Shown piece by piece: positions 5,007 through 44,977 of a DNA stretch of 64,000 nucleotides; position 1 is the stretch's first letter; the number at the start of each line of letters is the position of its first letter. The notes under the pieces were generated by a model. It ran no database searches. It saw only the letters and a program-made list of their open reading frames with translations, and had not been told where the DNA came from. The stretch lies in assembly GCA_011839185.1 (NCBI GenBank), contig GCA_011839185.1_3918.1, one strand, 5' to 3'. A program made the position numbers and the translations under genes. The stretch is from a phage.

Positions 5007-5013
5007 AATGAAA

Positions 5014-5035
5014 GGGTCTCTTCGGAGACCTTTTT
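5014..5035 (+). terminator. rho-independent terminator-like hairpin
   Basis: GGGTCTC-TTCG-GAGACC followed by TTTTT. Confidence 0.55.
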
Positions 5036-5054
5036 AGCATGTAAAGGGGCAATA

Positions 5055-12758: not shown

Positions 12759-12773
12759 AAGTATATGATAAGA

Positions 12774-12795
12774 GGCTCCTACGGGAGCCTTTTTA
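12774..12795 (+). terminator. rho-independent terminator
   Basis: GGCTCC-TACG-GGAGCC followed by TTTTT. Confidence 0.6.
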
Positions 12796-12811
12796 ATTTC
12801 TGGAGAAGATT

Positions 12812-16889: not shown

Positions 16890-16906
16890 TAAGTAATTTC
16901 TTAAAA

Positions 16907-16928
16907 GGCTGCTTCGGCGGCCTTTTTT
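16907..16928 (+). terminator. rho-independent terminator
   Basis: GC-rich hairpin around TTCG followed by TTTTTT. Confidence 0.55.
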
Positions 16929-16989
16929 ATTTGTATTTTGTGCAGAGTGCTGTATAATTGTTGTCACGATAAACTAAACAGGAGAACCA

Positions 16990-21931: not shown

Positions 21932-21967
21932 TTTACAAGGGGCTTATAGTTCGATAGAGTAAGCCCC
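21932..21967 (+). promoter_or_regulatory. type-I cassette: promoter embedded in a hairpin
   Basis: TTTACA, 17-nt spacer, TAGAGT; the spacer and -10 lie inside the inverted repeat GGGGCTTA...TAAGCCCC; followed by the conserved UTR CAGATAAAGAGCTTTAC...GGAGATTCTAAAATG. Confidence 0.5.
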
Positions 21968-22401: not shown

Positions 22402-22437
22402 TTTACAAGGGGCTTATAGTTCGATAAAGTAAGCCCC
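22402..22437 (+). promoter_or_regulatory. type-I cassette promoter/hairpin
   Basis: near-identical copy of the 21932 cassette (TTTACA, 17 nt, ATAAAG/TAAAGT). Confidence 0.5.
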
Positions 22438-22780: not shown

Positions 22781-22816
22781 TTTACAGGGGGCTTAAAAGT
22801 TGATATCTTAAGCCCC
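22781..22816 (+). promoter_or_regulatory. type-I cassette promoter/hairpin
   Basis: TTTACA, 17 nt, TATCTT inside GGGGGCTTAAAAG...CTTAAGCCCC. Confidence 0.5.
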
Positions 22817-25913: not shown

Positions 25914-25950
25914 TTTACAGGGGGCTTAAAAGTTGGTATCTTAAGCCCCA
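25914..25950 (+). promoter_or_regulatory. type-I cassette promoter/hairpin
   Basis: TTTACA then GGGGGCTTAAAAGTTGGTATCTTAAGCCCC. Confidence 0.45.
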
Positions 25951-32537: not shown

Positions 32538-32881
32538 TATAGTTTCCTCATTAAATACTTTTTAAGTTGTGTGTTAGGTTTCTCAAAAACTTCTATAGAA
32601 GATATCTTGACAGACTCACCACGCATACCTGTATGTTTAAATATGTAATACTCTAACATCCCTATGTACTTTGCTGGTAAGTCATGTTTGACATACACTG
32701 TTACAGAATCTTCAAATTCAACAACCTTTGTACCATCCTTGTAGTTAAACTCTCTAGGGTGGTTGTAGTTATCAATGTCATACATTAAAAAGAGTCTTTT
32801 CCGTTGCATGTCAAGCTTATTGGTTAAAGACTCTTTAATATCTGAGAAGTTTTTGTACACTGTGACATGGAGCTTACTCAT
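32537..32881 (-). CDS. hypothetical protein
   Basis: ORF track 114 aa. Confidence 0.45.
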   Translation of the reverse strand: MSKLHVTVYKNFSDIKESLTNKLDMQRKRLFLMYDIDNYNHPREFNYKDGTKVVEFEDSVTVYVKHDLPAKYIGMLEYYIFKHTGMRGESVKISSIEVFEKPNTQLKKYLMRKL

Positions 32882-37431: not shown

Positions 37432-38847
37432 ATGAGCGAATTATTTAAACATGCGCACCTTCATGCAGGTCGAACTGAAAATGGTGCTGTAAACCATACT
37501 TCATCAATGTCTGCTCTTGTAGACTTTTACAAAGCTGCTGGTTCAAGCCGTAGTAACGTAGAAATCTTACCAGACCTGTTCTACAAAGCTTTGCGTGAGG
37601 ATGTTGATGTTGCAGTTCGTATTTTGCTTCATATGCGAGATGTACGAGAAGGTATGGGTGAGCGTAAAGCCTTCAGAACTGTTTTGCTTCAAGCAATTGA
37701 AGATAAAGTTTTAGAGTCTACGCAGGTTCTTCGCATTATGGATAAGATTGCAGAACTTGGTCGTTTTGATGACTTCAAAATCTTCGTAGGTACTCGTTTC
37801 GAGACAGATGCCTTCAAACATTTAGAAGAAGCATTACTAGACCCTGCAACAGCAGGTTTGGCGGCTAAGTGGTTACCACGAGTCAAACCACGTCATAAGC
37901 AGTTTGTAAAACGTTTCTGCAAGTTTGCCAACTTGAGTGAGAAAGAGTACCGCACACTGTTGTCTGCACTATCTGATACAGTTGAGCAAAAAATCTCTGC
38001 TAATGAGTTTGGTAAGATTGACTACAGTAAGATTCCTTCACTTGCTGCTGCACGTTACCAAAAACTGTTTAACCGTAAAGATGGAGAGCGTTACAAAGCT
38101 TACATCGAGTCCTTATCAAAAGGTGAGGCTAAGATTAATGCTGGTGCTGTTTACCCATACGATGTGATTAAATCTGTCAAGCATGGTAATGCAGATGTTG
38201 CTAATGAGCAGTGGAAAGCACTACCAAACTGGATGGCAGAAGGTGAAAACATCTTGTGTATGTCTGATGTATCAAGTTCAATGTCTTGGGTGAATTTTGG
38301 CTCCATTACTGCTCTGGATATTGGTGTATCACTTGCCTTGTATGTAGCAGAACGCAATACAGGTTGCTTTAAGAATGAGTTGATGGTTTATTCAACAAAC
38401 CCTCACTTCATCGAACTGAGTGGTGATTTACGAAACCGTCATCGTCAGGTGATGCGACACGTTGAATATGGCTCAACTAACTTACAAGCAGCTTTTGACC
38501 GCATTCTTGAGACAGGCAAAAGAAACAACTTGACTCAGAAAGATATGCCAAGTAAGCTTATCATCTTCTCCGATATGGAGTTTAATCAGGTTGATGGGGC
38601 TAACGGTCGTACAAACTTTGAAGCAATTCAGAGTAAGTACAAAAAAGCTGGATATGAGATGCCACAACTGGTATTCTGGTACTTAGCAAACCGTAATGGT
38701 ACTTGCGAAGTATCTGTTAAGGATAACGGTGTAGCAATGGTATCAGGGTTCTCTCCAGCCACTTTAAAAGCTCTGCTTGGTGGTGAGAAGTTTGACCCAA
38801 TCAGTGTAATGCTCAAAGCAGTAATGATTGACCGTTATATCTGGTAA
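37432..38847 (+). CDS. vWA-domain protein with helical N-terminal domain (possible Ro60/Rsr-like or DUF2828-like)
   Basis: 471 aa; MIDAS-type DVSSSM at about residue 279 with downstream T and D residues; ~270-aa helical N-terminal region; directly upstream of the tRNA array. Confidence 0.6.
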   Translation: MSELFKHAHLHAGRTENGAVNHTSSMSALVDFYKAAGSSRSNVEILPDLFYKALREDVDVAVRILLHMRDVREGMGERKAFRTVLLQAIEDKVLESTQVLRIMDKIAELGRFDDFKIFVGTRFETDAFKHLEEALLDPATAGLAAKWLPRVKPRHKQFVKRFCKFANLSEKEYRTLLSALSDTVEQKISANEFGKIDYSKIPSLAAARYQKLFNRKDGERYKAYIESLSKGEAKINAGAVYPYDVIKSVKHGNADVANEQWKALPNWMAEGENILCMSDVSSSMSWVNFGSITALDIGVSLALYVAERNTGCFKNELMVYSTNPHFIELSGDLRNRHRQVMRHVEYGSTNLQAAFDRILETGKRNNLTQKDMPSKLIIFSDMEFNQVDGANGRTNFEAIQSKYKKAGYEMPQLVFWYLANRNGTCEVSVKDNGVAMVSGFSPATLKALLGGEKFDPISVMLKAVMIDRYIW

Positions 38848-38865
38848 AAAGTTTTAAAAAGGGTA

Positions 38866-38894
38866 TTGACAATGTGTTTAATACCCTTTAATAT
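38866..38894 (+). promoter_or_regulatory. sigma70-like promoter
   Basis: TTGACA, 17-nt spacer, TAATAT. Confidence 0.5.
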
Positions 38895-39173: not shown

Positions 39174-39180
39174 GTTTTGA

Positions 39181-39253
39181 CAGAAGACCAATTACAGCAA
39201 ACTTAATCTTATTCATCTGAAGGTAAATCGGACAAAGAAGAGATTTGGTCTGG
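39181..39253 (+). ncRNA. candidate structured element A (hairpin with conserved bulged closing stem)
   Basis: 5' CAGAAGACCAAT ... ATTTGGTCTGG 3'; AT-rich ~48-nt interior; one of four related elements. Confidence 0.35.
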
Positions 39254-39264
39254 TCATTAAGAAT

Positions 39265-39341: not shown

Positions 39342-39347
39342 AATTTA

Positions 39348-39411
39348 CAGAAGACCGTTTACAGCAATATTTATTAAATTTTTAGCGGAAAAATTGAAAG
39401 ATACGGTCTGG
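39348..39411 (+). ncRNA. candidate structured element B
   Basis: 5' CAGAAGACCGTTTACAGCAA ... ACGGTCTGG 3'. Confidence 0.35.
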
Positions 39412-39424
39412 TAATACTAAACAT

Positions 39425-39741: not shown

Positions 39742-39769
39742 ATTTTGAGAGGGCTATTTAGCCCCTCCC

Positions 39770-39797
39770 TTAAAGGGTTCTTACGAGTATCCTTTAA
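39770..39797 (+). promoter_or_regulatory. conserved hairpin with GTTCTTACGAG loop (copy 1 of 4)
   Basis: TTAAAGG-GTTCTTACGAGTAT-CCTTTAA. Confidence 0.4.
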
Positions 39798-39802
39798 AGG
39801 AG

Positions 39803-39876
39803 CAGAAGACCAAATACAGCAAGTTACTTAAAATTTCAAGCCAATTTAATTTTGAAAAATTTAAAACTTGGTCTGG
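39803..39876 (+). ncRNA. candidate structured element C
   Basis: 5' CAGAAGACCAAATACAGCAA ... CTTGGTCTGG 3'. Confidence 0.35.
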
Positions 39877-39889
39877 CTCAACAAATTTA

Positions 39890-40020
39890 CAGAAGACCGT
39901 TTACAGCAAAACTTAAACAATCTATTTCTCGGTAAAGAAAAGGCGAAGGTTCGATTCCTTCACTCGGCAGATGTCGAGTTGGTGTAATGGTAGCACTTAA
40001 GATGATAAACAACGGTCTGG
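39890..40020 (+). ncRNA. candidate structured ncRNA D: closing stem as A-C, enclosing a permuted tRNA-like module
   Basis: CAGAAGACCGTT ... AACGGTCTGG; inside in order: T-arm GAAGGTTCGATTCCTTC, 7-bp acceptor-like hairpin ACTCGGC-AGAT-GTCGAGT, D-arm GTGTAATGGTAGCAC. Confidence 0.45.
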
Positions 40021-40021
40021 T

Positions 40022-40165
40022 AATTATCTTTGTAGATAAGTTATTAAGCTTACCTGTGAGTATGCGACCACAAAGGGTGAAAGGGTAAATTCTAGATTTA
40101 AACCTAAAAAGGCACATCGCTACAGACCTTAAGCAAGTCTGGGTAGCTTATCTACAAAGATAATT
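40022..40165 (+). repeat. long inverted repeat (19-bp perfect arms) enclosing about 106 nt
   Basis: AATTATCTTTGTAGATAAG (40022-40040) and its exact reverse complement (40147-40165). Confidence 0.6.
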
Positions 40166-40169
40166 TAAT

Positions 40170-40245
40170 GGAAGTGTAGCAGAATGGTGATGCGGCAGAC
40201 TTTTAATCTGACAGGCGATGGGTTCGAATCCCTCCACTTCTACCA
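40170..40245 (+). tRNA. tRNA-Lys (anticodon TTT)
   Basis: acceptor GGAAGTG/CACTTCT, loop CTTTTAA, T-loop TTCGAAT, encoded CCA; T-stem imperfect in my parse. Confidence 0.65.
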
Positions 40246-40323
40246 AATTCACCCTTAACTGAGAAACACCTGCGCGGCTGGAAACACCCACTCAACAGTT
40301 TCTCTAACTAGGGTACTTATTCT

Positions 40324-40400
40324 GGTTCAGTCGCAGATAAGGTAATGCAAGGGTCTCATAAGCCCTATGAATGTGGGTTCGATTCCCATCTGAACCTCCA
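40324..40400 (+). tRNA. tRNA with CAT anticodon (Met, fMet or Ile2)
   Basis: acceptor GGTTCAG/CTGAACC, anticodon stem with three G-C pairs (AGGGT/GCCCT), loop CTCATAA, T-arm GTGGGTTCGATTCCCAT, encoded CCA. Confidence 0.7.
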
Positions 40401-40416
40401 ATTCGTTGGTGATATT

Positions 40417-40902
40417 ATGTTTTGTGCTAATAAAGATTGTGACAACAAAGCCGTTAAAGGTGGAAAGTATTGTTCACGCTCTTGTGCTGCAAGGGTAAAC
40501 AACAAGAGTCATCCAAAAAGAAGACAAGAAGGCTCTTGTCATTCATGTGGAAAGCAGACACCAAAATCAAGAAAGTATTGTGATGAATGTATTTCAAATG
40601 GTATTCTGAAACAATACAAAAACCCCGATGAAGAAAAGAAAGCGAAGTCACAACACGTTAAAAAGTCTCGTGACAAACTTAAGAGGGTTTTAGTTGATTA
40701 CAAAGGTGGTTGTTGCTCAATTTGTGGATACAATAAGTGCATAAAGGCTTTAGAGTTTCACCACTTAGACCCTAATACAAAGGACTTCACAGTAGGACAA
40801 AAACACTTCTCTATAGAGGTAATGAAGTCTGAAGTTGATAAGTGTGTATTACTGTGTGCAAATTGCCACAGAGAGGTACACGAAGGGGTAACAAAGCTGT
40901 GA
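40417..40902 (+). CDS. HNH homing-endonuclease-like protein with N-terminal zinc ribbons (start trimmed past the tRNA)
   Basis: C-terminal EFHHLDP...LLCANCHREVH HNH motif; several CxxC pairs; ORF-track start 40345 lies inside the tRNA. Confidence 0.65.
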   Translation: MFCANKDCDNKAVKGGKYCSRSCAARVNNKSHPKRRQEGSCHSCGKQTPKSRKYCDECISNGILKQYKNPDEEKKAKSQHVKKSRDKLKRVLVDYKGGCCSICGYNKCIKALEFHHLDPNTKDFTVGQKHFSIEVMKSEVDKCVLLCANCHREVHEGVTKL

Positions 40903-40971
40903 AAGCACATATGGATGTGCATTCGGCTGATAACCGAAAGGCAGAAGGTTCGAATCCTTCTCACAGTACCA
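40896..40971 (+). tRNA. tRNA-Ile (anticodon GAT)
   Basis: acceptor GCTGTGA/TCACAGT, D-arm GCACATATGGATGTGC, arm TTCGG-CTGATAA-CCGAA, T-arm GAAGGTTCGAATCCTTC, encoded CCA; first 7 nt overlap the HNH stop codon. Confidence 0.75.
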
Positions 40972-40986
40972 ATTTCAATAAAGTTG

Positions 40987-41015
40987 TTGACATTGAGATG
41001 TGACTACTTTATAGT
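40987..41015 (+). promoter_or_regulatory. sigma70-like promoter inside the tRNA array
   Basis: TTGACA, 17-nt spacer, TATAGT. Confidence 0.55.
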
Positions 41016-41182
41016 AACCTTAGTTTTCGTTGCGTAGCGTCTATTTTGCAAATTTAAAATAAATGCAAACGACAATGTTTTTCTGGCAGTAGCTTGATAG
41101 GCTAAACACCAGTGAGGTCTTCCAATCCCTCATCAAAGAATTTGGCGTACTCGCCCACGGTATGATTAATAAGGTGGGCATC

Positions 41183-41210
41183 TTTAAGGGCTTTCTAAGA
41201 GAGTCTTTAA
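41183..41210 (+). promoter_or_regulatory. conserved hairpin-motif variant (copy 2 of 4)
   Basis: GGCTTTCTAAGAGAGTCTTTAAAG, about 10 nt upstream of tRNA-Arg. Confidence 0.3.
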
Positions 41211-41218
41211 AGATTAAT

Positions 41219-41295
41219 GCACCCTTAGTTCAACTGGACAGAGCAAATGACTTCTAATCATTGAGTTACAGGTTCGAATCCTGTAGGGTGTGCCA
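41219..41295 (+). tRNA. tRNA-Arg (anticodon TCT)
   Basis: acceptor GCACCCT/AGGGTGT, arm AATGA-CTTCTAA-TCATT, T-arm ACAGGTTCGAATCCTGT, encoded CCA. Confidence 0.8.
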
Positions 41296-41437
41296 ATTAG
41301 TTAGCAGATTACTTAGACGACCTTATCGGGTCTCCGTGTAAGGAGGTGGTCTGTATCTCATGTTTTCCAGAACATGTAAATAATCTGAGAAGGGGCTTTA
41401 CAGTGTTGAGATAACAGGGTAAGCTTCGAATTATAGT

Positions 41438-41520
41438 ATGGGACGATGTTAAGACTCTAAGGCATGAGCAACGGCTTCCAACACCGTTTCAAAGGGGTTC
41501 AACTCCTCCGTCCCATGCCA
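41438..41520 (+). tRNA. atypical tRNA-like gene, anticodon CCA (Trp-type), about 7 extra nt between acceptor and D-arm
   Basis: 3' two-thirds parse canonically (arm ACGGC-TTCCAAC-ACCGT, T-loop TTCAACT, acceptor GTCCCAT, CCA) but the complementary 5' acceptor sits 7 nt too far upstream. Confidence 0.3.
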
Positions 41521-41533
41521 AAGTCTTATTAGG

Positions 41534-41621
41534 GGTAGGTAGCGGCTAATGGTAGCCAAACTGTCTTGAAAACAGTTGCCACTGTAGAGATACGGTGAGG
41601 GTTCGACTCCTTTACTTACCG
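41534..41621 (+). tRNA. tRNA-Ser (anticodon TGA), long variable arm
   Basis: 88 nt; acceptor GGTAGGT/ACTTACC, 3-bp D-stem, arm ACTGT-CTTGAAA-ACAGT, T-loop TTCGACT; no encoded CCA. Confidence 0.65.
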
Positions 41622-41843
41622 CCTAATAAGATTTAAAGCCAAGCTTCATTCGGATGTTGCTTTGGTATCCCTCGTGTATTGTCGTACACACTGATAAAGC
41701 ACCTAGTAGGTGTCACGGAGAAGAGATAATATCAAGCTCTCCAAAGGTTCTAGTCACCGGATTAAACAAGACTATGCAAAGACCTATTTAGGTCTTTTTA
41801 GAGGGCTTCTAAGGTTATTACAGCTTGTTGTGGAACCTTGTTG

Positions 41844-41868
41844 CTTAGGTTCTTAGAAGTTCTCTAAA
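41844..41868 (+). promoter_or_regulatory. conserved hairpin-motif variant (copy 3 of 4)
   Basis: TTAGGTTCTTAGAAGTTCTCTAA, about 10 nt upstream of a tRNA. Confidence 0.3.
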
Positions 41869-41878
41869 AAGATTTAAT

Positions 41879-41955
41879 GCACCTATAGCCCAACTGGTAG
41901 AGGCAGCAGACTTAGAATCTGCTCAGTGTGAGTTCGAATCTCTCTAGGTGTACCA
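41879..41955 (+). tRNA. tRNA with Leu anticodon TAG, class-I-length variable loop
   Basis: perfect anticodon stem GCAGA/TCTGC with loop CTTAGAA; Leu-like D-loop AACTGGTAGA; discriminator A; 5-nt variable loop. Confidence 0.6.
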
Positions 41956-41962
41956 AATTAAT

Positions 41963-42038
41963 GCAGGTGTAGCAAAATGGTTATGCGGCTGACTCTTAAT
42001 CAGTAAGACGATGGGTTCAATTCCCTCCACCTGTACCA
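41963..42038 (+). tRNA. tRNA-Lys (anticodon CTT)
   Basis: acceptor GCAGGTG/CACCTGT, loop CTCTTAA, T-loop TTCAATT, encoded CCA. Confidence 0.65.
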
Positions 42039-42044
42039 AACATT

Positions 42045-42120
42045 GGGGTCATAGTTTATATGGTTAAAATTCGAGTTTTGCAAACTTGGGAACTGAGTTC
42101 AATTCTCAGTGACTCCACCA
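42045..42120 (+). tRNA. tRNA-Ala (anticodon TGC)
   Basis: acceptor GGGGTCA/TGACTCC with G3-U70 wobble (Ala identity element), loop TTTGCAA, T-arm CTGAGTTCAATTCTCAG, encoded CCA. Confidence 0.8.
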
Positions 42121-42125
42121 ATTAG

Positions 42126-42201
42126 TGCATCCATAGTTTAAACGGGAAAATTACAGTCTTCCAAACTGAGGTTGAGGGTTCGATTCCCTCTGGATGCTCC
42201 A
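42126..42201 (+). tRNA. tRNA-Gly (anticodon TCC)
   Basis: acceptor GCATCCA/TGGATGC, loop CTTCCAA, T-arm GAGGGTTCGATTCCCTC, encoded CCA. Confidence 0.75.
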
Positions 42202-42208
42202 AATTAAT

Positions 42209-42284
42209 GCTCCTATCGTATAATTGGCTATTACGGTTGCCTTGTAAGCAACTTATCAGGGTTCGAATCCTTGTGGGAGCACCA
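42209..42284 (+). tRNA. tRNA-Thr (anticodon TGT)
   Basis: acceptor GCTCCTA/TGGGAGC, arm GTTGC-CTTGTAA-GCAAC, T-arm CAGGGTTCGAATCCTTG, encoded CCA. Confidence 0.8.
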
Positions 42285-42287
42285 ATT

Positions 42288-42376
42288 CAGAGGTCAAGTG
42301 AAAGACCGCTTTGAGTCAACTGAAGACCGTAACAAATTCCACGGAGTTGAGTTAGCGGCACAACTCCAGACCTCTT
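42288..42376 (+). ncRNA. candidate structured element E between tRNA-Thr and tRNA-Val
   Basis: 7-bp closing stem AGAGGTC/GACCTCT enclosing an internal hairpin GGAGTTG...CAACTCC and a GAAGACCG word shared with elements B and D. Confidence 0.3.
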
Positions 42377-42380
42377 TCAT

Positions 42381-42455
42381 ACTCGCTTAGTTTATATGGT
42401 AAAACATCACCCTTACAAGATGAAGAAAAAGGTTCAAGTCCTTTAGTGAGTACCA
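42381..42455 (+). tRNA. tRNA-Val (anticodon TAC)
   Basis: acceptor ACTCGCT/AGTGAGT, loop CTTACAA, T-arm AAAGGTTCAAGTCCTTT, encoded CCA. Confidence 0.7.
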
Positions 42456-42456
42456 T

Positions 42457-42534
42457 GTTCCAGTATCCCAATTGGCAGAGGATGCAAGCTCAAACCTTGT
42501 ACTAGTGACGGTTCGAATCCGTCTTGGAACACCA
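42457..42534 (+). tRNA. tRNA with Leu anticodon CAA, class-I-length variable loop
   Basis: acceptor GTTCCAG/TTGGAAC, Leu-like D-loop CAATTGGCAGA, loop CTCAAAC, T-arm GACGGTTCGAATCCGTC, discriminator A, encoded CCA. Confidence 0.55.
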
Positions 42535-42539
42535 ATTTT

Positions 42540-42615
42540 GCAGGATTAGTTCAAATGGATAGAGCAACAGTCTACGAAGCTGTTAGTAGGGGTTCGAATC
42601 CCTTATCCTGCGCCA
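42540..42615 (+). tRNA. tRNA-Arg (anticodon ACG)
   Basis: acceptor GCAGGAT/ATCCTGC, arm ACAGT-CTACGAA-GCTGT, T-loop TTCGAAT, encoded CCA. Confidence 0.75.
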
Positions 42616-42633
42616 GATAAGCAAGAGGAATTT

Positions 42634-42876
42634 ATGCAAACATTAATCGTCGTTGAACATGAAAATCCCAACAGTATTGAGTTTGTAAGGGTTCCCACTA
42701 TAGATACTCACATTTTCTTGAAAGTCGGATGGGAATGCGACCCGATAAAAGTAGGAAAATTTCTTGGTCATTACTTTGGTGGAAGACAATTTAAAAGTAT
42801 CAATTTTGAGACAGTATTACCAGAAAACTCAGAAACAGACAATAATACTTACCTCCTTACGAGGATTAGACAATGA
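42634..42876 (+). CDS. hypothetical protein inside the tRNA array
   Basis: ORF track 80 aa; does not overlap any tRNA. Confidence 0.45.
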   Translation: MQTLIVVEHENPNSIEFVRVPTIDTHIFLKVGWECDPIKVGKFLGHYFGGRQFKSINFETVLPENSETDNNTYLLTRIRQ

Positions 42877-43430
42877 GATACTTAAAATATGTTTCATGGA
42901 TTTTCTTAGCTTTGTTAGAACCATTTGCAGCAACCCTAGCAGTCATCTTAGCACCTTTCGTAGTTCCATTCTACAGTGAGAAGAAAGGGCATCTACCTTT
43001 TGGATTCAGATGGATGGAGACCTATGACAACCCTATTGATGGTGACAAAGGCCACGTTGAGAGATGGGCTAAGATTAGAAAGATTGGTAAGCTTGGTGTC
43101 TACATGCAGAGAGTTGGATGGCTCTGGAGAAACAAAGCTTATAACTTCTCTTACCATGTATTAGGAAGAGATGTAAAAGACGTTACTAAGTGGAAAGGTA
43201 ATATCAACGTAAGTTCTAACCCTGAAGATAATCAAACAGGTTATCTCCTAATGTGGAATAGCAATGCTTGGGGATTATTTGCTTTTATCCCATCAATTAA
43301 AGTCTTTGGTAAACAGTTTTACTGGAGAATTTATATTGGATGGAAACTAAAAAGTGTTGTCCCAGAAGAAAGAGCATTCTCAAGGGAAAGAGTTATGTTG
43401 GCATTCTTTATTCATCCACTGAGAAAGTAA
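42873..43430 (+). CDS. hypothetical protein with N-terminal hydrophobic segment
   Basis: 185 aa; Trp/aromatic-rich; start overlaps the upstream stop. Confidence 0.5.
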   Translation: MRYLKYVSWIFLALLEPFAATLAVILAPFVVPFYSEKKGHLPFGFRWMETYDNPIDGDKGHVERWAKIRKIGKLGVYMQRVGWLWRNKAYNFSYHVLGRDVKDVTKWKGNINVSSNPEDNQTGYLLMWNSNAWGLFAFIPSIKVFGKQFYWRIYIGWKLKSVVPEERAFSRERVMLAFFIHPLRK

Positions 43431-43438
43431 AGATTTAA

Positions 43439-43514
43439 AGGGGATTAGTTTACAAGGTTAAAACCTCGGTCTTTGAAATCGAAGAAGTTGGTTCAATTCC
43501 AACATCCCCCGCCA
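43439..43514 (+). tRNA. tRNA-Gln (anticodon TTG)
   Basis: acceptor AGGGGAT/ATCCCCC with weak 1-72 pair, arm TCGGT-CTTTGAA-ATCGA, T-arm GTTGGTTCAATTCCAAC, encoded CCA. Confidence 0.7.
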
Positions 43515-43516
43515 AT

Positions 43517-43595
43517 GCTCCATTACTCCAATTGGCAGAGAGGCCAGACTTAAAATCTGTGTTATGTATCGGTTCGAATCCGATATGGAGTACCA
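43517..43595 (+). tRNA. tRNA with Leu anticodon TAA, short variable loop
   Basis: acceptor GCTCCAT/ATGGAGT, Leu-like D-loop CAATTGGCAGA, loop CTTAAAA, T-arm ATCGGTTCGAATCCGAT, discriminator A, encoded CCA; anticodon stem imperfect. Confidence 0.5.
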
Positions 43596-43600
43596 AATTT

Positions 43601-43675
43601 AGCGGTATAGCATAACTGGCAATGCAACAGTCTCTGAAGCTGTCCTATTAAGGTTCAAATCCTTATGCCGCTGCC
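43601..43675 (+). tRNA. tRNA-Gln (anticodon CTG)
   Basis: acceptor AGCGGTA/TGCCGCT, arm ACAGT-CTCTGAA-GCTGT, T-arm TAAGGTTCAAATCCTTA, encoded CCA. Confidence 0.7.
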
Positions 43676-43680
43676 ACTTC

Positions 43681-43704
43681 TAAGGGTTCTTACGAGAGTC
43701 CTTA
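43681..43704 (+). promoter_or_regulatory. conserved hairpin with GTTCTTACGAG loop (copy 4 of 4)
   Basis: TAAGG-GTTCTTACGAGAGT-CCTTA just upstream of tRNA-His. Confidence 0.4.
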
Positions 43705-43707
43705 AAT

Positions 43708-43783
43708 GTGGCCTTATCATAAATGGTAATGACCCATGCTGTGAACATGGTCTATACGGGTTCAAATCCCGTAGGTCACCCCA
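43708..43783 (+). tRNA. tRNA-His (anticodon GTG)
   Basis: acceptor GTGGCCT/AGGTCAC, arm CCATG-CTGTGAA-CATGG, T-arm ACGGGTTCAAATCCCGT, discriminator C, encoded CCA; no encoded G at -1. Confidence 0.7.
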
Positions 43784-44953: not shown

Positions 44954-44977
44954 GACGGTCTCTGTGCCGTCTTTTTT
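44954..44977 (+). terminator. rho-independent terminator
   Basis: GACGG-TCTCTGTG-CCGTC followed by TTTTTT. Confidence 0.6.

Follow-up and report, generated by a model that had tools for sequence, protein, structure and literature searches.

Is the small hairpin that recurs within a phage array of transfer RNA (tRNA) genes kept for the sequence of its loop or for the helix it forms, and what could such a hairpin do in the array transcript? The question arises from 64,000 nucleotides of phage DNA (GenBank assembly GCA_011839185.1, contig GCA_011839185.1_3918.1), called the window below, for which an earlier note had described, between positions 39770 and 43704, a hairpin with a conserved loop at four sites, here named A to D. 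The window belongs to a FelixO1-type phage (Felixounavirus, Ounavirinae); the region is ~95% identical to that group and 409 phage records match it. On the plus strand, 26 tRNAs are called by ARAGORN between 39012 and 44791, and a promoter and terminator scan places σ70-like array promoters at 38866/38956 and 40987 and the terminator at the array end at 44954. What is usually called the tRNA array of FelixO1-type phages is a mixed array, made up of tRNAs, an RNA resembling transfer-messenger RNA (tmRNA), four elements resembling Y RNA and other structured RNAs. We found that two of the four sites, A and D, carry the same hairpin, and as far as sequence comparison can tell its signature is selection on structure, not on loop sequence.

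Two canonical hairpins in one array

The two canonical copies are built as follows.

39770–39797, plus strand: hairpin A, canonical, TTAAAGGGTTCTTACGAGTATCCTTTAA; core G1–C18 at 39775–39792, UACG tetraloop at 39782–39785
39765–39768 (CUCC) with 39799–39802 (GGAG), plus strand: outer helix of hairpin A, which lengthens it to 39765–39802
43681–43704, plus strand: hairpin D, canonical, TAAGGGTTCTTACGAGAGTCCTTA; core at 43684–43701, tetraloop at 43691–43694

Each folds into a helix of 10–12 bp capped by a UACG tetraloop, with energies, flanks included, of −15.1 kcal/mol for A (z = −2.2) and −16.4 kcal/mol for D (z = −3.8). The inner pairs are G1-C18, G2-C17, G3.U16, U4-A/G15, U5-A14 or a U.U mismatch, C6-G13 and U7-A12, and the 13-mer GGGTTCTTACGAG is present without change in both copies. 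Sequence and fold thus bear out the stable hairpins that the earlier note had placed here, while the 14-nucleotide loop drawn for them turns out to be mostly stem, with seven more pairs below the tetraloop. Hairpin A lies 3' of tRNA-Asp and directly 5' of the third Y-RNA-like element. Hairpin D occupies the 31-nt spacer between tRNA-Gln(CUG) and tRNA-His, and its 3' end is 3 nt before tRNA-His. A position about 10 nt upstream of a tRNA, as had been proposed, therefore describes D, B (4 nt before tRNA-Arg) and C but not A, which adjoins the Y-RNA-like element and has its next tRNA 372 nt away.

How unusual is this pair of copies within the window? A motif search with the 11-mer, allowing up to two mismatches, gave 21 matches where 14.5 ± 4 were expected, which is not above chance, and exact matches were found at A and D only. 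It is not the 11-mer count that lends the pair its significance but the hairpin which both share, the strand they are on, their placement in spacers of the array and their conservation in other genera. A covariance model trained on eight copies from four genera (alignment A1/R1) singled out A with 54.3 bits and D with 55.7 bits, whereas any other locus of the window reached at most 16 bits and the reverse strands of A and D themselves 18.6–19.4 bits. No Rfam family overlapped A or D at E values up to 5, and hairpin B was touched solely by a weak tmRNA alignment.

Several identities were considered for the element and dropped. A known ribozyme or riboswitch was set aside as there was no Rfam match, and a promoter because there was no consensus match and just two copies per genome. 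Mimicry of the sarcin-ricin loop, with which the hairpin has UACGAGAG in common, was rejected, partly by inspection, since there is no bulged-G motif, the GAGA loop is disrupted in copy A and the covariation favours the other register. Similarly, a mimic of the tRNA-Val anticodon loop (CUUACGA against CUUACAA) would need a register which conflicts with the covarying pairs. As to pairing with other RNAs of the array, the sole partners of the hairpin are its own palindromic relatives.

Variation in helix and loop

The earlier note had taken the loop, rather than the stem, to be conserved and had concluded from this that the sequence is recognized. The comparison of copies gives the opposite picture. 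Among ~60 copies from five lineages, the sequence changes keep the helix: the pair 2:17 occurs as G-C, A-U, G.U and once as A.C, G3.U16 is replaced by A3-U16 and U4.G15 by U4-A15, and the outer A/U stem varies from locus to locus yet remains paired. In the 52 matches of the covariance model (15 distinct sequences), 92% of the cells are paired and five of the 12 pairs have changed on both sides, and sliding the 3' partners by 1–3 columns lowers the pairing to 30–62%; these figures come from an alignment which was fitted to the covariance model and in which paralogues are mixed. The G.U pairs form in the plus-strand RNA and would be A.C mismatches on the other strand, which indicates that the element acts as RNA in the transcript that has the sense of the tRNAs.

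The loop is the part that varies. UACG is found in most copies, UGCG in two loci (L022 and L223), UUCG at site A of L225, and UAUG at site D of L225 and in L227. Loop positions U1 and G4 are invariant, the second position is A, G or U, and the third is mostly C and otherwise U. This pattern agrees with the known constraints of UNCG tetraloops, in which U1 and G4 are fixed and the second nucleotide is free, except that UAUG deviates at position 3. Every copy closes its loop with U7-A12 and not with the C-G pair to which hyperstable UNCG hairpins owe their extra stability.

Distribution among related phages

Comparison with related phages, which the earlier note had put forward as a check, found the hairpin kept in the arrays of Felixounavirus, Suspvirus and Mooglevirus as well as in Kolesnikvirus. 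In all 26 Felixouna-, Susp- and Mooglevirus arrays of the viral collection, which were retrieved by way of a conserved protein encoded nearby, the canonical hairpin occurs exactly twice, at the positions of A and D and on the plus strand, and arrays from metagenomes agree on two copies wherever a contig spans both sites. The complete genome of the Erwinia phage FIfi106 (Kolesnikvirus) has a single copy, as do three more Kolesnikvirus contigs, two of them taken from the viral collection and the third from the scan of metagenomes. This Kolesnikvirus copy, AAAAGGTTCTTACGAGAGTCTTT, is situated at the 3' end of a promoter-driven, tmRNA-like non-coding RNA, just before tRNA-Leu(CAA). All copies lie on the tRNA strand. 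The tRNA cassettes that adjoin hairpin A have been swapped between phages.

An 18-mer pattern search found Ounavirinae contigs only, besides a few chance matches in coding regions in IMG/VR. We rejected a wider distribution, as the IMG/VR matches outside Ounavirinae sit in open reading frames (ORFs) without nearby tRNAs. The possibility that the element is derived from the host, or antisense to a host RNA, was also dropped: the 16-mer core gave 35 scattered matches in 596 Gb of bacterial sequence (185,579 genomes), none of them, on either strand, in Enterobacterales.

Two metagenomic contigs, L225 (ERZ1027012, 80.9 kb) and L226, represent an Ounavirinae lineage between the Felix-like phages and Kolesnikvirus, with 68% identity in an ORF49-like protein. 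This lineage has copies at both A and D, including the UUCG and UAUG loop variants. The array of L225 is without tRNA-Gln(CUG) and tRNA-Glu, and its hairpin D is still 3 nt upstream of tRNA-His. The latter tRNA has a peculiarity of its own. At 43707–43783 (plus strand), it has U at position −1 and no encoded G-1 in spite of C73, and the same is true in Felixouna-, Susp- and Mooglevirus and in L225; in some GenBank records it is marked as a pseudogene. A tRNA-His of this kind always has hairpin D before it, while the Kolesnikvirus tRNA-His (L034 5689–5766) has an encoded G-1 and no hairpin.

Site B, site C and a companion hairpin

Of the four sites first described, two are canonical (A and D) and one, B, is degenerate, whereas C belongs to a different hairpin. 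A further hairpin, here called hairpin 0, accompanies A.

41180–41214, plus strand: hairpin B, degenerate; 16-bp stem with three G.U pairs and a triloop, −17.4 kcal/mol, z = −3.9
41788–41877, plus strand: long hairpin of ~29 bp, −37.6 kcal/mol, z = −4.5, outside the motif family
39747–39767, plus strand: hairpin 0, companion, GAGAGGGCU-AUUU-AGCCCCUC; immediately 5' of hairpin A and conserved

Hairpin B is the 3'-terminal hairpin of the tmRNA-like RNA and ends 4 nt before tRNA-Arg(UCU). It scores just 14.9 bits (E = 0.12) in the covariance model, but in alignment A4 it matches the canonical hairpin of the Erwinia phages column for column. Since the orthologous Erwinia position carries the canonical 16-mer GGTTCTTACGAGAGTC, B is a diverged (decayed) homologue, and the description of it as a weaker variant was apt. 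The same description fails for C (41844–41868), which alone has z = −0.8 and no fold of its own, is part of the 3' arm of the 41788–41877 hairpin and was not recovered by the covariance model in the 64-kb window. In SUSP1 a different hairpin stands in place of B. Judging from BLAST coverage and the tRNA list, an HNH endonuclease gene in FelixO1 lies where hairpin B, together with the preceding 3' part of the tmRNA-like RNA and the following tRNA-Arg(UCU), is apparently missing. Hairpin 0 also covaries, with GGGCU/AGCCC replaced by GGACU/AGUCC in L225.

Relation to the intrinsic terminators of the phage

To what does this hairpin bear a likeness in the phage itself? The window has seven hairpins of at least 9 bp capped by UNCG on the plus strand and none on the minus strand, against a mean of 1.6 in shuffled sequence. 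Two of the seven are A and D; of the other five, four are canonical intrinsic terminators with an A-tract and a GGG or GGC lower stem, for example TGAAAGGGTCTC-TTCG-GAGACCTTTTTA.

905–930, 5009–5036, 12770–12797 and 16903–16930, plus strand: UNCG intrinsic terminators with C-G closing pairs and tracts of 4–6 U

Hairpins A and D are like these C(UNCG)G terminators in having an A-tract, a stem that begins with GGG, a UNCG loop, a stem that ends in CC and a pyrimidine or U run, all on the transcribed strand. They differ in the U-A closing pair, in a G.U or U.U within a weak, A-U-rich upper stem, in a U-tract cut down to UUUAAA or UUAAA, and in their location inside a unit whose downstream tRNAs need expression. 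The tracts, UUUAAAGG, UUAAAUGU and UUUAAAGA, fall short of the at least five U in eight positions of an intrinsic terminator, and A, B and D were not called in the terminator scan. At the end of a promoter-driven non-coding RNA such as the tmRNA-like one, a terminator is to be expected, and it is just there that hairpin B and the Erwinia copy are located. The homologous RNA of Deseoctovirus (L142) has, by eye, an ordinary-looking terminator a few hundred bases downstream.

Possible roles of the hairpin

More questions concern what the hairpin does. We tentatively favour, as a possible explanation, that it is a punctuation hairpin of the terminator type which does not terminate, or is leaky, and whose role would be to create or shield the 3' ends of RNAs, or to direct processing. 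RNA polymerase should mostly read through it, because the upper stem is weak and the 2–3 U of the tract are followed by A's; polymerase would then pass the hairpin and go on to the downstream tRNAs. Excision of the neighbouring tRNA by RNase P, or occasional termination, would leave the hairpin at the 3' end of the upstream RNA, for which it could provide a compact, exonuclease-resistant end within the polycistronic precursor, and it may also insulate the adjoining folds. Its ancestral place was perhaps the 3' end of the tmRNA-like RNA gene, the sole position in Kolesnikvirus and the one occupied here by B; A and D would be duplicates, set before the Y-RNA cluster and before tRNA-His. The suggestion of the earlier note that the element is an RNA-level signal in the array transcript, for example for processing, is plausible and comes close to this proposal.

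Several observations weigh against it. Only 4 nt separate hairpin D from the CCA of tRNA-Gln(CUG), and a stable structure so close by should impede the 3' maturation of that tRNA instead of aiding it. A stem of 10–12 bp is short for RNase III, and the U-A pair that closes the loop is not the classical C-G of hyperstable UNCG hairpins. Moreover, the Felixounavirus D and the Kolesnikvirus copy have the 16-mer in common without a single change, and yet the orthologous B has diverged or given way to another hairpin in the same genera, which is hard to understand for a purely structural role and hints at some sequence-specific reading. Could the hairpin be a dedicated recognition module which marks the non-tRNA passengers for a specific factor, instead of generic punctuation? 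We consider this decidedly improbable. As an example, such a module would be the 3'-terminal handle of a split phage tmRNA-like system, reused at the Y-RNA cluster and at the tRNA-His that lacks G-1, and in that case at least one canonical copy per genome would be needed, in cis or in trans, for mimicry of ribosome rescue or for RNA quality control.

Another explanation is that the hairpin is a sequence-specific ligand site (an aptamer, decoy or assembly site) or an excised small RNA, released by RNase P and trimming or acting in cis; a dedicated phage or host protein would bind it, reading the tetraloop together with the conserved G.U pair and the upper stem, UUCU/AGAG, which is invariant. 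We regard it as unlikely, though it deserves to be kept in mind. The 16-nt core is the same in the Felixounavirus D and in Kolesnikvirus despite unalignable spacers and tRNAs that are ~79% identical, each genome has at least one canonical copy at a flexible position, and the copy at the ancestral position, B, has decayed where A and D exist. However, the loop and several stem positions vary while the structure is kept, the 185,579 bacterial genomes hold no host copy or complement of the 16-mer, and no candidate partner was found. Both of the candidates considered failed: a Ro60/Y-RNA binding site is no general explanation, as FIfi106 carries the hairpin in a genome without any homologue of the Ro60-like ORF of the window, and the ProQ/FinO partner is an Erwinia phage protein without a homologue in the 64-kb window or in the first 45 kb of phage garuso. 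If, on the other hand, termination itself were the function, a sub-case of the explanation that we favour, the hairpin, as a leaky intrinsic terminator or an attenuator, would control how much transcript is made along the array. Its architecture, shared with the four canonical UNCG terminators, the A-tract upstream with UUU or UU immediately downstream and the location at the end of the tmRNA-like RNA gene all fit such an attenuator, but the U-tract has 2–3 U only and escapes the terminator scan, the upper stem is weak, and strong termination would silence tRNA-His and tRNA-Phe, as no promoter was detected between D and those tRNAs. We therefore think it rather improbable that dosage control is what the hairpin is for. 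Much the same degree of doubt attaches to a strict endonuclease site, either a target of RNase III or a positioner of RNase E. Hairpins A and B reach ~16 bp when their outer helices are counted, a structured leader may need removal from tRNA-His and tRNA-Arg, to which D and B come as close as 3 and 4 nt, and several non-tRNA RNAs of the array cannot be freed by RNase P alone; yet D with 10–12 bp is below the usual length of an RNase III substrate, about two turns of double-stranded RNA, there is no internal-loop architecture of the T7 R-site type, and the distances to the neighbouring RNAs vary.

The 5' arm of the hairpin, GUUCUUAC, resembles boxA of λ nutR, GCUCUUAC, and the γ-proteobacterial consensus GYUCUUUAANA (PMC5725501, as GYTCTTTAANA in DNA). 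NusB/NusE bound to this arm would shield transcription of the long untranslated array from Rho, much as untranslated arrays of clustered regularly interspaced short palindromic repeats (CRISPR) are protected by boxA (PMC7665894), and the window has no exact boxA consensus, only matches with one mismatch, so that none is found near the array promoters. In our view a Nus-factor site is nevertheless very improbable. The core GTTCTTACGAG is one U short and mismatched in its 3' half compared with GYTCTTTAANA; the sequence is paired in a hairpin of −15 to −17 kcal/mol and is not in a single-stranded leader; G3 is changed to A in copy D of two genomes, by which the invariant G of boxA is lost and the base pair kept; and the distance between the copies and the promoters (38866/38956 and 40987) ranges from 750 nt to 4.7 kb. 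Finally, might the element act as DNA, as a target of homing endonucleases or of recombination or as a cruciform, or be a functionless remnant of a duplicated terminator? HNH endonuclease genes come and go in these arrays and the tRNA cassettes next to A are exchanged. The compensatory and wobble-mediated changes and the strand asymmetry of the G.U pairs speak for an RNA helix instead, the orientation is constant, no HNH gene adjoins A or D in the annotations inspected (FelixO1, SUSP1, Maleficent and the window), and the element is universally retained in five lineages, all of which makes this explanation extremely unlikely.

Taken alone, the hairpin is of small weight: a structured spacer element particular to one lineage (Ounavirinae), and a further instance of the ways in which phages organize long polycistronic transcripts of tRNAs and non-coding RNAs. 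Its main value is as a landmark, for the passengers of the array are set apart by terminator-like hairpins which have apparently been disarmed for read-through. If the hairpin does define RNA ends, it would offer a simple handle with which to map or manipulate passenger RNAs in tractable phages such as Bas63 and FelixO1.

A tmRNA-like RNA in the array

The RNA of which hairpin B is the last element has features of the mRNA-like domain of tmRNA.

41022–41214, plus strand: tmRNA-like RNA with an "mRNA-like domain"; promoter at 40987–41015 (11 of 12 matches), hairpin B as last element

Its tag frame at 41065–41097 encodes ANDNVFLAVA with a stop codon, and a second stop follows (to 41100): GCA AAC GAC AAT GTT TTT CTG GCA GTA GCT TGA TAG. 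As expected for a tmRNA tag frame, it is directly preceded by a resume context, AAAUAAAU, and after the tag come helix-5-like and pseudoknot stems which covary between genera. Homologues occur in 602 phage records belonging to at least six groups. The tags of the five other groups are ANDAQFLAVA, ANDNAYLAVA, ANDDVVLMAA, ANEEMYLAVA and ANDSEMRVDA; these groups are Kolesnikvirus (L034 4590–4826), Ackermannviridae, Deseoctovirus, a Klebsiella phage and Loessnervirus, the loci including L140–L143. The tRNA-like domain of a tmRNA, which would bring an acceptor stem with G3.U70 and CCA on the same molecule, was not called by ARAGORN, and the Rfam tmRNA model gives 15.9 bits against a gathering threshold of 47. 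In a 2014 survey of tmRNA, phage ssrA was listed in mycobacteriophages and Bacillus phage G only (PMC4131195). It is possible that the RNA represents a hitherto undescribed class of phage tmRNA mimics or split tmRNAs.

Y-RNA-like elements and other features of the window

39178–39256, plus strand: Y-RNA-like element 1
39345–39414, plus strand: Y-RNA-like element 2
39800–39879, plus strand: Y-RNA-like element 3
39887–40023, plus strand: Y-RNA-like element 4

These four elements have the form CAGAAGACCnnUUACAGCAA...GGUCUGGUaa. Their closing helix is bulged, NNNN-AGA-AGACC ... GGUCU-G-NNNN, with outer helices that covary (UGAC/GUCA, UUAC/GUAA, GAGC/GCUC), and a conserved UUACAGCAA lies 3' of the 5' strand. 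The architecture of the fourth is that of YrlA (PMC4201824): inside it are a T arm, an acceptor stem closed by a loop, and a D arm. All are downstream of a Ro60-like ORF at 37432–38847 (Pfam DUF2828 and DUF7788). The Y-RNA-like elements of the window together with its Ro60-like ORF agree with what has been speculated about gp130 of phage Bas63 (PMC11482910). A possible fifth, more divergent element lies at 42285–42380.

The array contains further passengers. At 41438–41520 (plus strand) there is an unannotated tRNA-like gene missed by ARAGORN, with an 8-bp acceptor stem followed by GCCA and a T arm GGGGUUCAACUCCUC; its anticodon-type loop, UUCCAAC, contains CCA (Trp), its D region is aberrant, and the Rfam model of tRNA-Sec gives just 16.9 bits. 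A tRNA-Trp is otherwise absent from the array, and Kolesnikvirus has one. The 20-mer AAGGAGGUGGUCUGUAUCUC at 41340–41359 (plus strand) is the same as at L034 4948–4967 of an Erwinia phage, although the surrounding spacers cannot be aligned; it has a perfect Shine-Dalgarno sequence and GGUCUG with no conserved ORF after it, and may be another small RNA. At 40023–40164 (plus strand) a closing stem of 17–18 bp (AUUAUCUUUGUAGAUAAG ... CUUAUCUACAAAGAUAAU) surrounds ~100 nt, its end being 5 nt from the start of tRNA-Lys(UUU). The sequence ...AAAGAU(N)UAAU forms the end of several array passengers, immediately 5' of the following tRNA. Between tRNA-Met and tRNA-Ile, at 40417–40902 (plus strand), an HNH endonuclease ORF has been inserted whose stop codon overlaps the start of tRNA-Ile, and the spacers which hold HNH genes differ between the FelixO1, SUSP1 and Maleficent arrays.

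Outside the array, the early region has a hairpin GGGGCUUA(A)-loop-(U)UAAGCCCC, always followed by AGATAAAGAGCT, four times on the plus strand (21939–21967, 22409–22437, 22788–22816 and 25921–25949). At 38858–38889 and 32789–32836 (plus strand), inverted repeats of 10–11 bp, AAAGGGTATT...AATACCCTTT and AAAGAGTCTTT...AAAGACTCTTT, flank −35-like sequences and run into a TAATAT −10 element; these may be operator-flanked promoters.

Comparison with known systems

No description of the hairpin was found in the literature searched, and a search for transcript mapping of FelixO1 likewise returned nothing usable. To which known elements does it come nearest? Hyperstable C(UUCG)G hairpins were reportedly found in intercistronic regions of phage T4 by Tuerk et al. 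in 1988. Like the hairpin described here, they are short phage RNA hairpins with UNCG loops, lie between genes and are thought to stabilize RNA or mark its ends; they differ in C-G closure, whereas the present hairpin closes with U-A and accepts UAUG as a loop. The tRNA cluster of T4 is said to have a leader hairpin upstream of tRNA-Gln which is cut by RNase III before RNase P acts (McClain 1979; Pragai and Apirion 1981); for an endonuclease site in the array it would be the closest precedent. Both are hairpins just upstream of a tRNA in a polycistronic phage precursor, and the one of T4 is a processing signal. The hairpin of the window, known from its sequence, has a shorter stem without sequence similarity, and its copy A does not adjoin a tRNA.

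With the boxA/nut elements of rrn operons and λ nutR it shares a long untranslated transcript and an arm, GUUCUUAC, that is one pyrimidine apart from GCUCUUAC. Unlike them, it is base-paired, departs from the 11-nt consensus, is not promoter-proximal and allows G to become A when pairing is kept. Repetitive extragenic palindromic (REP)-type sequences and other 3' stem-loop stabilizers are similar in being recurrent, conserved intergenic hairpins on the transcribed strand which can block 3' exonucleases, but the present element has 1–3 copies per genome, in the tRNA array only, and no associated transposase. The hairpin is thus not a new kind of element; it is a new, lineage-restricted member among the known stabilizing and processing stem-loops of phage and bacterial operons.

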